64,000 nt of DNA. Origin: a virus. The number at the start of each line of letters is the position of its first letter. Position 1 is the first letter of the stretch. A program made the translations under genes and the position numbers. The stretch is from the UHGV virus genome UHGV-0279745; one strand, given 5' to 3'. The notes under the pieces were generated by a model that saw only the letters and a program-made list of their open reading frames with translations, was not told the origin of the DNA and made no database searches. Below, in pieces: positions 1-5,748 of the stretch.

Positions 1-720
1 CGTCCCCGGAAGCTTGGAAGGAGATTTATCCACCAACGAAAAATAACCGTTATGAGAGTGAGCGCGTACGCTTAGAATGGCGTGAGTTCTTTCAGGAACA
101 ATCGTTCTCATTCTTTCCAAGACACCTTCCGATTATTTCATCAAAACTGATCGTTACGGAGGAACGCCGACAAGGTATTTTTATCGATCCGGTTTATACC
201 AGTGCTATCGACGCAGTAAAAAATGTGGCGTTATTGTACACGAATGCACGTCGCATCGAACCACGATTTATTATTCGCCGCGCAATCAAAGCGAATCGAC
301 AACTTGCGTATTTCTATATTGACCATCGTCAGGAAGTGATGGAAGGTAAACCTGGGTTCTATCGGGCAAAACTCGGGTCAACACACGTACCGTGGGGCGG
401 ACGTGTGACTATCTCTCCTATCTCTGAACCTCACGATGCGTTGAAAGTTATTGCGCCTTGGCGTTGGTTGGTTCCGTTGGCGAGTGTTCACATTGAGAAC
501 AAGTTAGGTCGTCGTGATTATACACCTCGACAATGTGAGCGTATCATTGCATTTGCGGCAATGCAGTATGTACCGCTGGTACATGAAATTATTAATGAGT
601 TGATTAAAGAATCCCCCGGCGGATTCGGCTTAATGTTGGAAGTTCTGCGTAACCCAACATTGGTTCAACTTTCTATTCAGACTTTGTTCATCTCAGCGGT
701 ACTGACAGATGTAACACAAT
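1..720 (+). CDS. multisubunit RNA polymerase beta' subunit, N-terminal module, exon 1 (5'-partial; continues upstream of window)
   Basis: Frame open from window edge (codons from nt 3). PWGGRVTISPI resembles the bacterial YSGRSVITVGP motif; LRNPTLVQLSIQTLF (nt 645-689) resembles NRAPTLHRLGIQAF. The 3' end at 720 is a model, not resolved; the frame stays open to 896. Confidence 0.6.
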
Positions 721-1070
721 GTTCTCTGCGTATTTCTGATCGCGTCATCAAAGCACCTAATGCTAAACACTGGCCCACTAGACGGGAAACCTCTAGTGTG
801 TATCCCTCGAATTGCTGGAAACCCCTAAAGCTTACGATCCCGACAGGGTGGCGAAAGTCAGAAACAATTCGTAAGATAACCTATGCTAACCAATAATGCT
901 AAGGGTTGTGATAATGGATAACCAGCAGCGATGAAAATCGTTCAACGACTATCGAAAGGGTAAAACCGAGTAGAGTAGCTGCTTAGTTTAGCGGCGAAGT
1001 GGGGGAGACCTACGGGTAGCAATACCTACGGTTATGATATAGTCTGTGCCCATGTGAAAGCATGGGAGGG
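721..1070 (+). other. putative ORF-less group I self-splicing intron in the beta' gene (boundaries approximate)
   Basis: P-like AATTGCTGGAAA (810-821) pairs with Q-like CCAGCA (922-927); R-like TTCAACGACTATCG (941-954) and S-like GATATAGTC (1036-1044) give a GACTA/TAGTC P7 pairing. GNRA-type hairpins at 776-798 and 1048-1066. Stop codons in all frames around 894-915. Reading frame switches across the element. Confidence 0.6.
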
Positions 1071-1354
1071 TGTCATTGCACACCTGCTCCAAAAGGAATG
1101 GAGTGGACAAACAGGATTTCGATGGCGACCAGTTACAATGCAGATTGGCAATCGACCAGATTGAAATGGAACTGGGCATGGCTTATCGCCCAGACAACGG
1201 GTTTATGTCAAGCACGAATGTGGACGAGGTTTCGAGTTGCATGATTCTCCATAACGAGAATATCAGCAACATAAACAGTTTCTTCCAGGATACTGAAGAG
1301 GACTTGGAAGCCGGTATCGCGCTTGACTCGGAATTATTAAAATTGGCGGGGTAA
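1071..1354 (+). CDS. RNA polymerase beta' subunit N-terminal module, exon 2 (catalytic DFDGD segment)
   Basis: DFDGD encoded at 1115-1129, followed by FMSSTNV resembling bacterial MMSTNNI. No in-frame ATG and no usable RBS upstream (in-frame stop at 1055-1057), and frame differs from exon 1, so expression as a separate polypeptide is unlikely. Confidence 0.65.
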
Positions 1355-2025: not shown

Positions 2026-2409
2026 ATGGCGATTGCAGTAGGCACGGTTTCTACACGCGGCTGGGCAAAAACTCCCCGTGAACGTATTCGTGAGATGATG
2101 AATCATTACACGGAAGCGGGGTATAGCCAATCGCAAATTTATCAAGGCAACGTCCGGTCACTTGCGAAAGCAAAGCAAATGTTTGCTCAAGATCCCGACG
2201 GCTTAGCCAATCGGGTGAAAACAGACTTAACCACGCTTTACGAACATATTTTCCCTGAGGGGGTTGAAGTAGAGACAACCTGGGAATATTTGCCGGATAC
2301 CGATGTACGCTACCGTATCATCATCCAAGCTCGTGTTATGTCGGGTGGGGTGTGGTATGATGTGGAACGTTACGTTGAAACTGAATCATCAGTCATTGAG
2401 GATGAGTAA
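2026..2409 (+). CDS. hypothetical protein
   Basis: 127-aa ORF with RBS-like GGAG upstream. Confidence 0.5.
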   Translation: MAIAVGTVSTRGWAKTPRERIREMMNHYTEAGYSQSQIYQGNVRSLAKAKQMFAQDPDGLANRVKTDLTTLYEHIFPEGVEVETTWEYLPDTDVRYRIIIQARVMSGGVWYDVERYVETESSVIEDE

Positions 2410-2411
2410 GG

Positions 2412-3080
2412 ATGGATCAAGAACCGGGAAAATTTAATGGGGTGCCCATTGAAGAACTTTCTGGCCGTGCTAAGTTTGAGTTTGAGAAACTTCTTGAAAT
2501 GGAAGAGATGCTTAAACAGGGCCAGGGTGTGTGCAGCGTGTTTACTGAATCGATGTTCCGTCGACAAGGTTTACCGCTGTTGTCGGGGATGTTGGACGGT
2601 ACGTTTAACGAAGATACCTGGACGGATTATGTAGGTAGTGCTTTCGTTCCGTTACAGATTGTTTCGGATTCGGATAATTCAAAACTACTCTTTACGATCC
2701 CGCCCCTGCTTAATACTGGTCGGTCGCTCCAACACGTCGATGGTCAGCCGTCGCTCACTGAAGAAACAGAGATGATTCGCCAACAAGCCGATATCATTTC
2801 CGAGGTCGGTGAACGGCAGATGTATCAGATGATCGACTATACGTTGGACGGCATCGAAAAGTTGTCGTACGAAGAAAATGCACTTCGTGCGAAACAGACT
2901 ATCGATCTGTTAAACTGGATCTTCCGTCGTTATAACGTGTCAGGACAATTACCTTATCCTGAAGGACTTGAAGAATTGTGCAATCGTATCCAGGGACAAA
3001 AGAAACCTGTAACGGCGGCACAGCCTGAACAGTCCTCCCCTGCTAAGGGAAGAAGAATCATCGATGAAGAGGATTACTAA
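2412..3080 (+). CDS. hypothetical protein
   Basis: 222-aa ORF; RBS AGGA upstream; overlaps the next gene by 17 nt. Confidence 0.55.
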   Translation: MDQEPGKFNGVPIEELSGRAKFEFEKLLEMEEMLKQGQGVCSVFTESMFRRQGLPLLSGMLDGTFNEDTWTDYVGSAFVPLQIVSDSDNSKLLFTIPPLLNTGRSLQHVDGQPSLTEETEMIRQQADIISEVGERQMYQMIDYTLDGIEKLSYEENALRAKQTIDLLNWIFRRYNVSGQLPYPEGLEELCNRIQGQKKPVTAAQPEQSSPAKGRRIIDEEDY

Positions 3081-4212
3081 TCCGCCACCGAAACCAGTTG
3101 GCGTTAAGCGCATTTTCTCAACGGGCGATGTACACTTATTGCACCGTCGTGTACCGACGTGGCATATTGTTAACGTGCTCAAGGAAACCTTAGAACGGTT
3201 CGATAATACGATTGACGCTATTTATATAGCTGGTGATTTATTTGATGATTCCCGGCATTTGCGGCAAGAAGATTCTCAGGAAGCCATAGGGTTTTTAACT
3301 TGGTTATTGCTCTGGGCCAAACAGACGAATACCGCTATTCGTGTCTTGGAAGGAACACCCTCCCACGATCACAAACAATCGAAAATCGTCGAAGAGTTAA
3401 ATCAGGCGGTGGGTGCAGATTGTTTGTATCTGGATAAGATTGGCGTGTTTTACGACGAGGCGTTAGAAGCGACAGTCGGTTGGGTCCAGGACGAGTATAA
3501 AGCCCTGGGTTCCGAATCCATTGATGCTGCCGCAACAGAACAGGAAATGGCTGAATTATTAGCCACGCGTGGTATACAGCAGATGGATTTCTGCTTTATG
3601 CATGGCTGCTTTCAGTTCCAAGTTCCCGTTGAGTCTACCCGCTTTTTCCATACGGATTTTTGGGAACCGTTAGTCAAGCATTTGATTATCATCCATCACG
3701 ATCATCGTAGGAAACAATTGGGTAAGATTCGTGTACCAGGCAGCCCTGATCGCCTGGCAATGGGTGAAGAAGAGGACAAAGGCTTTGCTATTGTCGATTT
3801 CACTCCTGATTTAGCCAGAGATTATTTCTTGGTTAATGAACGCGCTTGCCCGCAGATTAAGATTGCTGCGGAGGAGGACTATGAATCGCAGTACGCGAAA
3901 TGTCTCTCTGCGCTTGAGTACATTGATACTCATCCGTCCTCAGTGATTGGACGATTGGAAATTGAATATTACCCTGATTCTCCATTGGCGGAAGCCATCA
4001 CTCGTTGGAAATCACAATATTCTTTCCATATTTCAGGTACGCGTATACGTACGCCTGAAGAGGAGCAAATTCTCGCAGCCGGTTTTGCTATCGACGCAGA
4101 GGTCGAGGAAACCATCTCTGAAGAGAATGTGGAAGCGATTTTGTTAGAAGCATTAGTGCCGTTTAAATACGATGCACAAATTGTCACTGACATTATCAGG
4201 AGCATCAAATGA
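3064..4212 (+). CDS. calcineurin-like phosphoesterase, SbcD/Mre11-like nuclease
   Basis: Phosphoesterase motifs in order: GDVHL, GDLFDD, GTPSHD, FMHGCF, IIHHDH. Confidence 0.55.
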   Translation: MKRITNPPPKPVGVKRIFSTGDVHLLHRRVPTWHIVNVLKETLERFDNTIDAIYIAGDLFDDSRHLRQEDSQEAIGFLTWLLLWAKQTNTAIRVLEGTPSHDHKQSKIVEELNQAVGADCLYLDKIGVFYDEALEATVGWVQDEYKALGSESIDAAATEQEMAELLATRGIQQMDFCFMHGCFQFQVPVESTRFFHTDFWEPLVKHLIIIHHDHRRKQLGKIRVPGSPDRLAMGEEEDKGFAIVDFTPDLARDYFLVNERACPQIKIAAEEDYESQYAKCLSALEYIDTHPSSVIGRLEIEYYPDSPLAEAITRWKSQYSFHISGTRIRTPEEEQILAAGFAIDAEVEETISEENVEAILLEALVPFKYDAQIVTDIIRSIK

Positions 4213-5045
4213 CCCCAATCAGTGTTGATCGCACGTTTGGGTTTTATCAAATGTCAATTGCTACATCGTTGGCTTTTGAAGGGCTTCTCCATGAAGGAGA
4301 ATATGCCGATTGGAAGGGTCCTGTCCCTATCCACAAGTATCAGGATATTTACCTGAATCTACGGACGTTGTTCCGTAACGCGTTTTACGCGTTTGAAACG
4401 AATCGTGAACGATTAACACCTGAAGTGTTGCTGGCATCGATTGAAGAAGATATTGCTTCTATTAACGCTACCGCGAAAGCGGTAGCGCCTTCGGTGCTAT
4501 GTGTCCCCTATATCTGTACGTATAAAAGTGCGAACAGAATCTTCCCCGAAGCAGCGTTCCGTACGATTGCAGGAGGGCAGGAAAAGATGACACCTAACCA
4601 GCATCACTTTAATGCGCTAGAACACGATACGTTAAAGTTATACGGTGAAAAATACCCTGAACAATTCAAAAGCTTTGATGTGTTTCCGAAAGGGCAGCAT
4701 GACACATTGATTTTAACCCATTACCCTGCCGATCTACTGGCCTACAAAGATTTCCCGCTGTTGAATCTGCTAGAATCACACACGGGTAAGATTAAAGGTC
4801 GGTTAGAATGGTACACGAAGCTTTACGGTAAACCCGAACAGATCCCGTTTAACAAAGCGTTTCTAACGCTATTTGGCGATGGGTATATGTTCTCCCCACT
4901 TGACAGAAAGGTGCGTAAGGTGGTTTTGAAGACTGCCGAGAAATACCACTGGCGACAAGATACGACTATGGATCGTATTTACAGTTGTTTGAAGTTGGTT
5001 AACGAACCCTTTGTCATTGAGTTCCTTCGTAGATTGTCTCGCTAA
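4209..5045 (+). CDS. hypothetical protein
   Basis: 278-aa ORF; start overlaps the preceding stop (ATGA). Confidence 0.55.
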   Translation: MTPISVDRTFGFYQMSIATSLAFEGLLHEGEYADWKGPVPIHKYQDIYLNLRTLFRNAFYAFETNRERLTPEVLLASIEEDIASINATAKAVAPSVLCVPYICTYKSANRIFPEAAFRTIAGGQEKMTPNQHHFNALEHDTLKLYGEKYPEQFKSFDVFPKGQHDTLILTHYPADLLAYKDFPLLNLLESHTGKIKGRLEWYTKLYGKPEQIPFNKAFLTLFGDGYMFSPLDRKVRKVVLKTAEKYHWRQDTTMDRIYSCLKLVNEPFVIEFLRRLSR

Positions 5046-5103
5046 TTTTACAGATCGTTTTGTTAGTTTGAGCACTCCGAAAATGTAAAAATAGGATAAG
5101 TAA

Positions 5104-5748
5104 ATGGTCAATAAAAACTTCCTTAAAGAGAAATGGCTTTACCCGCAGACTGAGCCGGATCAACAGGGCCGTACGCGTAAACTGGGCATTGAACTGAACG
5201 AGTTCAATGGTGATGTGGAACTGATGAAATTCCACTACTCCTTTGGTAAAGGCGAAGGTCTTTATTTCACCGCAGGCTATACCGTTTGCGTTGATATCTT
5301 TGAAACCCTACGTACGGTGATGCAGAAACCCGAAAAAGTTGTTTTCAAATGGGAAGATGCAAAAGGTAAGAAGGCACCGGTTAGCTTACACGTAGGTCGT
5401 GATGAAAACCTGACACCGTTCTTTGCACTGAGCGGCGAGATCCCAGGGGTTGGTGCGCGTCAGAAGAAATTCTATTTCACTTATCCGAAAGGTTATCGTG
5501 TTTTCCGTAATGGACAACTGGTCTCCGATCTGGAACTGGCAGAGCGTCAGCTACGCGCGTTCCTGAAAAATGCGGATGTATTCCTGGAAGATTTCCGTGA
5601 CAACTACAAACCGCGTGAGTTTAATAATGCGGGTGGTGGTAGTTACGGTCGTGGTGGTTACAATAACGGCGGCAATGGCGGCGGTTATAACAACCAATCC
5701 GGTGCAAAAGCCCCAACACCAACTAACGATTTTGACGATATTATCTAA
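5104..5748 (+). CDS. putative single-stranded DNA-binding protein (SSB-like)
   Basis: Gly/Asn/Tyr-rich flexible tail ending in acidic tip NDFDDII, resembling the bacterial SSB DFDDDIPF tail. Strongly optimised codon usage. N-terminal OB fold not verified. Confidence 0.45.
   Translation: MVNKNFLKEKWLYPQTEPDQQGRTRKLGIELNEFNGDVELMKFHYSFGKGEGLYFTAGYTVCVDIFETLRTVMQKPEKVVFKWEDAKGKKAPVSLHVGRDENLTPFFALSGEIPGVGARQKKFYFTYPKGYRVFRNGQLVSDLELAERQLRAFLKNADVFLEDFRDNYKPREFNNAGGGSYGRGGYNNGGNGGGYNNQSGAKAPTPTNDFDDII

Follow-up and report, generated by a model that had tools for sequence, protein, structure and literature searches.

The analysed DNA, a stretch of 64,000 nt that is referred to here as the window, opens within an RNA polymerase gene whose coding sequence is split in two. 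Exon 1 (positions 3..764, + strand) is partial, the start of the gene lying upstream of the window; it encodes part of a non-virion RNA polymerase beta'-N subunit and ends with ...SLRISDRVIKAPNA, the last codon being GCU. Exon 2 (1115..1354, + strand), which was located by tblastn with the protein gp23 of Salmonella phage SPN3US, begins with DFDGDQLQCRLAIDQ... and extends to the stop codon at 1352-1354. Between the exons lies a predicted group I intron of 350 nt (765..1114, + strand), supported by a match to the Rfam family RF00028, by the comparison of intron-less and intron-containing alleles and by covariation. Its terminal G (omega G) at position 1114 (+ strand) belongs to the conserved tail UGGACAAACAG. 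The reading frame features that had been listed in a preliminary description of this DNA are all present in the sequence: the beta' motif LRNPTLVQLSIQTLF occupies 645-689 in the frame with codons starting at multiples of three, while a second frame encodes DFDGD at 1115-1129 and contains a TGA stop codon at 1055-1057. Without splicing, the frame beginning at nt 3 stays open up to a TAA at 894-896.

Pfam searches with the separate exon translations did not yield a match; the identity of the gene was deduced from SPN3US gp23 and from PDB entry 7OGP. The DNA of the window is approximately 68% identical to that of Seoulvirus and Erwinia jumbo phages (SPN3US, phiEaH2, Asesino), and the uninterrupted orthologue is SPN3US gp23, a protein of 531 aa. 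In phmmer searches, chain A of 7OGP (phiKZ gp55) was matched by SPN3US gp23 (E 5e-39) as well as by the spliced window protein (E 2e-30), both of which also matched AR9 and bacterial beta' chains, more weakly. The alignment with phiKZ gp55 was continuous across the 764/1115 junction (the slash denotes a splice junction). Judged by its sequence, the interrupted gene is the one encoding the beta'-N subunit of the jumbo-phage non-virion RNA polymerase, which contains the NADFDGD catalytic loop. For SPN3US, Thomas et al. (PMC5105663) attribute gp240, gp42 and gp244 to the virion enzyme and identify gp35 as the C-terminal beta' of the non-virion one. Further downstream in the window, a terminator-like hairpin (AAGAAGGGG-AUUGGGCAC-CCCCUUCUU plus a U run, 1954-1985) is located just after the stop codon of a gp24 homologue (1361-1948).

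Splice sites and predicted spliced product

The borders of the intron were determined by aligning the window with its intron-less homologue. Residues 203-456 of SPN3US gp23 aligned by tblastn to positions 3-764 with 71% identity, the alignment ending exactly at nt 764 (window ...SLRISDRVIKAPNA, gp23 ...SLRISDRVIKMANG). From residue 457 on, gp23 aligned from nt 1115 (residues 457-528), where DFDGDQLQC of the window faces DFDGDQFQV of SPN3US. The homology is unbroken up to 764 and resumes at 1115, and the intron was therefore assigned to positions 765-1114. Alleles of closely related phages agree with this placement. While SPN3US lacks an intron and reads AAAGATGGCAAATGGA/GATTTCGATGGTGAC at the site, phages Lh1B and SaP7, whose gp23 is 99% identical to that of SPN3US on the protein level, possess inserts of 356 nt and 1404 nt, respectively, at the same position. 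These inserts are bounded by ...AACGGU/ and ...GGACAAACAG/GAUUU, the same ends as in the window (AAUGCU/AAACAC...GGACAAACAG/GAUUUC). The placement is unique because a shift of the boundaries by 1 nt in either direction would lose the terminal G or an Asp codon. The tail ...GGACAA(A/U)CAG with its terminal G is kept in every member of the family directly before GAUUU(C/U), and cleavage at the 5' splice site would occur behind U764, whose U.G wobble with G772 of the guide is invariant in all six of the aligned intron copies described below.

Joining of 764 to 1115 results in ...AAUGCU/GAUUUC..., encoding ...VIKAPNADFDGDQLQC... in an uninterrupted frame that is colinear with SPN3US gp23 and phiKZ gp55. 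The spliced peptide ...VIKAPNA-DFDGDQLQC... restores the universal NADFDGD motif, and in the protein alignment its 12 residues KAPNADFDGDQL are identical to those of phiKZ gp55 (PDB 7OGP) across the junction. The predicted nucleotide junction is ...CACCUAAUGCU/GAUUUCGAUGG, and the predicted tryptic peptide spanning it is APNADFDGDQLQCR; unspliced reading past exon 1 would give peptides from KHWPTRRETSSVYPSNCWK....

The preliminary description had placed the intron at 721-1070, joining U720 to G1070/U1071 to give ...DVTQ-L-SLHTCSKRNGVDKQ-DFDGD. This intron would likewise comprise 350 nt, follow a U, end in G and keep the frame, but the one determined here is shifted by 44 nt to the right. Splicing at 720/1071 would delete the 15 residues CSLRISDRVIKAPNA, which are conserved in SPN3US gp23 (CSLRISDRVIKMANG) and in phiKZ gp55 (...LCLKAPNA), and would destroy the N-A of NADFDGD. 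It would moreover retain 1071-1114, a region forming the intron helices P9.1 and P9.2 (see below), so that RNA structure without a counterpart in the protein would be translated. It also conflicts with the intron-less and intron-containing alleles, which fix the insertion at GG(A/U)/GAU. We consider these splice sites to have virtually no chance of being correct. The wider range of 720-775 that had been given for the 5' splice site does hold the true one at 764; it was the preference for U720 that was mistaken.

RNA family and secondary structure of the intron

In an Rfam scan of the whole 64-kb window, RF00028 (group I intron) matched positions 749-1066 on the + strand with 58.6 bits (E 2.7e-12), the curated gathering score of this family being 50 bits. 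The match spanned the full model (1-253) and was the sole match to any RNA family above the curated threshold in the 64 kb; given this score, the E value and the singularity of the match, the resemblance to group I introns is not a matter of chance. The score above the RF00028 threshold comes from the conserved catalytic core, P3-P8 including the sequence elements of P4 and P7. The Rfam model ends at 1066, the last 48 nt (1067-1114) being assigned to the intron by comparative evidence alone.

To obtain the fold, RNAalifold was applied to an alignment of six intron copies, namely those of the window, Lh1B, Raoultella phage VB_ZK_P1, SaP7 (with its ORF-bearing loop removed) and two IMG/VR relatives, which had been found with a pattern derived from the 3' tail of the intron. 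Two doubtful helices were removed from the result and P7 was added as a pseudoknot, which gave 89 pairs. One of the removed helices paired exon CCU with AGG across the 3' splice site; it joins exon to intron, and in two of the six sequences two of its three pairs cannot form. The other one, GUCU 1041-1044 with GGAC 1105-1108, competes with the conserved pseudoknot P7.

In this way a complete group I architecture was recovered. Of the cells at paired positions, 96.8% were paired, compared with 35-47% when the partners were slid by 1-3 columns. Changes on both sides were seen for 37 of the 89 pairs versus one to seven in the slid controls, the counts being modest since the sample comprises only six sequences from about four lineages. 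For neither measure did any of 500 shuffles reach the observed value. Compensatory changes occurred in P1, P2, P3, P5, P5a, P7, P7.2, P8, P9 and P9.2. P4, P6 and P9.1 scarcely vary and are uninformative in this respect; the invariance of P9.1 neither supports nor opposes this helix.

The individual elements, all on the + strand, are arranged as follows. P1 (762-765 with 771-774) pairs GCUA with UGGC through G762-C774, C763-G773, the wobble U764.G772 and A765-U771. It is followed by the P2 hairpin (776-785 with 790-798; CACUAGA-C-GG, a GAAA loop at 786-789, CC-UCUAGUG), whose nine pairs are 100% paired, three of them with compensatory changes. P3 (UCCCUC, 803-808, with GGGGGA, 1001-1006) consists of six pairs, half of which exhibit compensatory changes. 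P4 (UGCUGG, 813-818, with CCAGCA, 922-927) is found in the Rfam alignment as well as in the six-sequence alignment. P5 (823-825 with 916-918) bears a branched extension that reaches 909 and contains P5a (831-837 with 869-875; six of seven pairs with compensatory changes), P5b (839-848), P5c (849-860, GAAA loop at 853-856) and P5d (876-882 with 903-909). The P6 hairpin (928-932 with 937-941; GCGAU, GAAA loop at 933-936, AUCGU) has outer pairs (928-930 with 939-941) that are invariant in the alignment, while its inner pairs A931-U938 and U932-A937 and its loop were derived from the single-sequence fold of the window.

J6/7 and the 5' strand of P7 together cover 942-951 (UCAAC-GACUA). The pseudoknot P7 (947-951 with UAGUC at 1040-1044) has five pairs that are 100% paired, one of which covaries, from U-A to C-G in SaP7. 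P7.1 (about 952-974) came from single-sequence folding only, whereas five of the six pairs of P7.2 (978-983 with 990-995) revealed compensatory changes. The P8 hairpin (1008-1032) was recovered by the alignment, by covariation and by the single-sequence fold, and in the P9 hairpin (1049-1066; CCCAUGU, GAAA loop at 1056-1059, GCAUGGG) five of seven pairs are compensatory. The last two helices, P9.1 (1067-1085) and P9.2 (1086-1104), are present in all six sequences; P9.1 is conserved, and in Lh1B P9.2 is replaced by a longer, different stem. The core elements P (810-821), Q (922-927), R (941-954) and S (1036-1044) named in the preliminary description correspond to the P4 5' strand, the P4 3' strand, J6/7 with the P7 5' strand (942-951) and the P7 3' strand, and GNRA hairpins had rightly been noticed as well, GAAA tetraloops capping P2, P5c, P6 and P9.

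For P1, it had been stated that no convincing guide pairing could be found, but the short helix described above does exist and its middle pair covaries between lineages. This pair, located beside the U.G wobble, is C-G in four and G-C in two of the sequences, C-G going along with exon codon GCU and guide GGC, and G-C with GGU and GCC. A longer P1 was sought by inspection, and only the helix of 4 bp was found in the window. Inspection likewise disclosed no canonical P10 between the guide and the 3' exon; only AAA at 765-767 could pair with UUU at 1117-1119. This pairing of the A-rich intron start with the UUU of the 3' exon amounts to 3 bp in the window and up to 6 bp in Lh1B, and may be due to chance.

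According to the Rfam alignment, an insert of 46 nt is located between the 5' strand of P7 and the 3' strand of P3. The helices in this insert, together with P9.1 and P9.2, suggest that the intron may belong to subgroup IA (IA2-like). The td, nrdB and sunY introns of phage T4, which are of subgroup IA2, also contain P7.1/P7.2 and P9.1/P9.2; they reside at conserved sites of essential genes and optionally carry endonuclease ORFs in peripheral loops. They differ from the introns studied here in their host genes and in their ORFs, which are of the GIY-YIG or His-Cys box type and not I-HmuI-like HNH.

The tail of the intron required a decision between two 3' splice sites. If U764 were joined to 1067, directly behind the G at the end of P9, a frame that is open from 1067 onward would add the 16 residues RVSLHTCSKRNGVDKQ before DFDGD; this intron would also end in G and the frame would be maintained, and it is with that G that the Rfam alignment ends. 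The preliminary description, too, had treated the 48 bases 1067-1114 as exon, read as SLHTCSKRNG.... No such residues exist in the intron-less SPN3US, Asesino and phiEaH2 or in phiKZ, and 1067-1104 (P9.1/P9.2) is without protein counterpart in SPN3US gp23 and phiKZ gp55. Conservation in 1067-1114 concerns RNA helices, Lh1B differing by an indel of 6 nt and by a substituted stem, and the tail GGACAA(A/U)CAG abuts GAUUU in every member of the family. We therefore judge a 3' splice site after G1066 to be very unlikely and assign P9.1, P9.2 and the tail to the intron.

Taken together, we propose with a probability of about 0.92 that positions 765-1114 constitute an ORF-less group I intron of IA-type architecture, comprising P1-P9, P7.1/P7.2 and P9.1/P9.2 and being spliced at 764/1115. 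The preliminary description, which had postulated a group I intron splitting the catalytic beta' gene just upstream of DFDGD, detected the intron and its core correctly, as is evident from the covariance-model match, the covariation and the alleles with and without the intron; it misplaced both splice sites and overrated the rarity of such an intron.

Proposed splicing reaction

By analogy to established group I ribozymes, the pre-mRNA would fold into a ribozyme, in which an external guanosine bound in P7 would attack the phosphate after U764, a nucleotide positioned in P1 through its wobble pair with G772. The 3'-OH of the released exon 1 would then attack after the terminal G1114, giving the joined exons described above. 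Without splicing, translation would end at the TAA at 894-896 and an active-site loop would not be made, so that production of the late polymerase would depend on the ribozyme.

We also considered that the intron might be a dead remnant and that two polypeptides are made, one from 1..896 and a second one starting near 1070. Two proteins are indeed annotated in the GenBank records of Lh1B, EC001 and SaP7, and the second frame offers a GTG at 1070 behind GGGAGG, so that its description as lacking a start codon is not entirely accurate. GGGAGG, however, adjoins the GTG directly, with zero spacing, and is part of the P9/P9.1 junction conserved in every family member. Furthermore, for the predicted introns of phiKZ no spliced reads were detected in a long-read transcriptome study under its conditions (PMC10914365), and the activity of this intron class in vivo is in view of that study not beyond question, though the name of 7OGP chain A, 'PHIKZ055 ... 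PHIKZ056.1', shows the products of phiKZ genes 55 and 56.1 joined in one chain. Against two separate polypeptides stands also that the invariant NADFDGD loop would be severed between A and D, with unrelated tails appended, and that every core helix has been kept by compensatory changes across lineages, which points to selection on the RNA fold. A dead remnant is in our opinion highly improbable, and the intron at 765-1114 is genuine and probably active.

The GGGAGG and GTG 1070 (window 1064-1072) mimic a ribosome binding site with a start codon, the sequence GGGAGGGUGU at the P9/P9.1 junction being invariant in all members of the family. This mimicry probably explains why gene callers let an ORF start there. 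In Lh1B (OK428535, L002 840-2791), SaP7 (OM456492, L003 960-3788), EC001, JN03 and SPLA3 the gene is annotated as two proteins, in GenBank as 'beta subunit 1' and 'beta subunit 2', of which the second CDS begins inside P9.2, and an intron feature is absent; other GenBank entries of relatives list the products as hypothetical proteins. We suggest that the gene be annotated as one spliced CDS, join(..764,1115..1354), and the spliced sequence is needed for modelling or expressing the polymerase of the window.

Distribution and mobility of the intron

Out of 158 phage records with a homologous gene, the majority show no interruption at this position. It is occupied by an intron in the Seoulvirus phages Lh1B, EC001, JN03, 1252, SPLA3 and SPLA5c and, with an ORF, SaP7 and Proteus phage 7, and also in Raoultella phage VB_ZK_P1, Klebsiella phage phiKp_32 and the IMG/VR contigs 3300045988_113438 and 3300045988_078609. 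None of the Seoulvirus copies is annotated as an intron, nor are the GenBank copies in VB_ZK_P1 and phiKp_32, and an intron is not mentioned in the papers describing Lh1B and the SPFM phages. All members of this family share with the window the insertion point and the helices at a nucleotide identity of 70-98%. Some of them differ from it in the guide, which is GCC instead of GGC and is matched by the exon codon GGU instead of GCU, and some carry an HNH/NUMOD ORF in the loop of P1, whereas the window copy does not.

The ORFs of SaP7 (288 aa) and phiKp_32 (339 aa), both inside the P1 loop, share homology with one another and with phiKZ gp56. They match the NUMOD1, I-HmuI-like and HNH_3 profiles, with HNH_3 scores just under the Pfam cut-off. 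In the window, there is no ORF of at least 60 aa wholly inside 765-1114, and a homologue of the HNH proteins of the relatives was not found anywhere in the 64 kb. An endonuclease gene was either lost from the window copy or never present in it. A co-infecting relative might, for example, have provided an endonuclease in trans for the movement of an ORF-less copy, or the ORF may have been lost after the transfer.

The closest copy resides on the contig IMGVR_UViG_3300045988_078609. In a comparison covering window positions 165-1354, its intron is identical to that of the window at 343 of 350 positions (98%), compared with about 74% for the flanking exons, and the boundaries are sharp. Per bin of 40-50 nt the exons show 64-84% identity, with the exception of one 50-nt bin approximately 400 nt upstream (96%). 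Contig IMGVR_UViG_3300045988_113438, which is 96.5% identical to positions 1-1391 of the window, comes from a phage very closely related to the source phage. Relative to SPN3US, the last 7 nt of exon 1 contain three synonymous changes that are common to the two Seoulvirus alleles with the intron, the background divergence being 1.5-2.3%. The presence and absence of the intron among relatives and its 98% identity next to exons of about 74% indicate that it belongs to a mobile family and has recently spread laterally; the two values make it a clean example of such spread.

Relation to introns of other jumbo phages

An intron in a phage multisubunit RNA polymerase gene had been regarded as unusual. 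Introns at nearly the same spot are already known, though, in phiKZ and its relatives, the site of the window differing by 3 nt. The intron in gene 55/56.1 of phiKZ (NC_004629 49168-50539, L012 669-2040) has a size of 1372 nt, scores 75.6 bits with Rfam and contains gp56, an HNH gene; its splice sites were placed at AAU/...G/GCU by means of the phiKZ genome and the sequence in 7OGP, with P1 formed by UAAU and GUUA. The host gene is orthologous to that of the window and the same NADFDGD motif is interrupted. Both introns possess P9, P9.1 and P9.2 followed by a tail of approximately 10 nt (UGAACAAUACG in phiKZ, UGGACAAACAG in the window), and the core of the window intron is about 72% identical over 108 nt to that of phiKZ-like phages. 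The phiKZ site, AAU/GCU (N/A), is located 3 nt upstream of the GCU/GAU (A/D) site of the window, the guide differs, and the 350-nt intron lacks the ORF that phiKZ has.

PMC11512511 refers to previous work on introns in phiKZ gp55 and gp180 and on the endonucleases gp56, gp72 and gp179. An intron in 201phi2-1 gp273/274 has also been reported (PMC11512511, PMC5105663), for which two spliced reads exist (PMC11512511). In PhiPA3, the gp210 intron is inserted in the virion RNA polymerase beta gene, and its endonuclease nicks the intron-less allele and harms a competing phage (Birkholz et al. 2024, PMC11620839). The GenBank record of Goslar annotates an Intron_gpI adjoining an RNA polymerase-like gene. 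The introns of PhiPA3, 201phi2-1 and Goslar, some of which encode HNH endonucleases, resemble that of the window in belonging to group I and in being located at catalytic residues of multisubunit RNA polymerases of jumbo phages. They show short stretches of similarity to the window intron but occupy other subunits and sites, and the PhiPA3 intron has an endonuclease while the window copy is without one. The locus adds to these introns targeting catalytic residues an ORF-less member and a distinct insertion point; the knowledge of how group I introns work is unchanged by it.

In VB_ZK_P1 (PV662128, L004 2872-3200) and phiKp_32 (L005), the homologous intron is followed by a 12-nt exon, GATTTTGACGGT (DFDG), and then by a second insertion of approximately 310 nt, which is preceded by a U and has a terminal G in front of GATACCATG (D-TMYC...). 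In both phages a micro-exon within the catalytic motif is enclosed by the two insertions. With the second insertion of VB_ZK_P1 (L004 2860-3260), no Rfam family was obtained at E values up to 1. Considering phiKZ, the window and VB_ZK_P1/phiKp_32, three insertion points lie within about 15 nt of the NADFDGD coding sequence. It is conceivable, albeit rather doubtful, that two things hold jointly: that the approximately 20 nt encoding NADFDGD are a hot spot invaded independently at no fewer than three positions (N/A in phiKZ, A/D in the window, G/D in VB_ZK_P1/phiKp_32), and that the ORF-less copy is more than a parasite and persists by breaking the HNH recognition site, thereby serving as a passive immunity allele against co-infecting relatives, comparable to the situation around PhiPA3 gp210.

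Two further observations were made in the course of the searches. In Salmonella phage SPFM1 (LR535901, L006 ~2300-5300), SPN3US gp23 was matched by scrambled, mostly reversed blocks of about 20 aa (60 nt). This multi-piece match was set aside, a corrupted or mis-assembled deposit being likely; the description of the record reads 'XXX'. At two partial loci, IMGVR_UViG_7000000190_000048 and IMGVR_UViG_3300028603_000018, no Rfam match was obtained at the gathering score. Their sequences are group-I-like, exhibit the same P9.1 motif (GGAGGGUGU...CACACCUGCU) and terminate in tails (GUGGACAUACGG and GUGGACAAUUCUG, respectively) that resemble the tail in the window, with unrelated flanking sequences.
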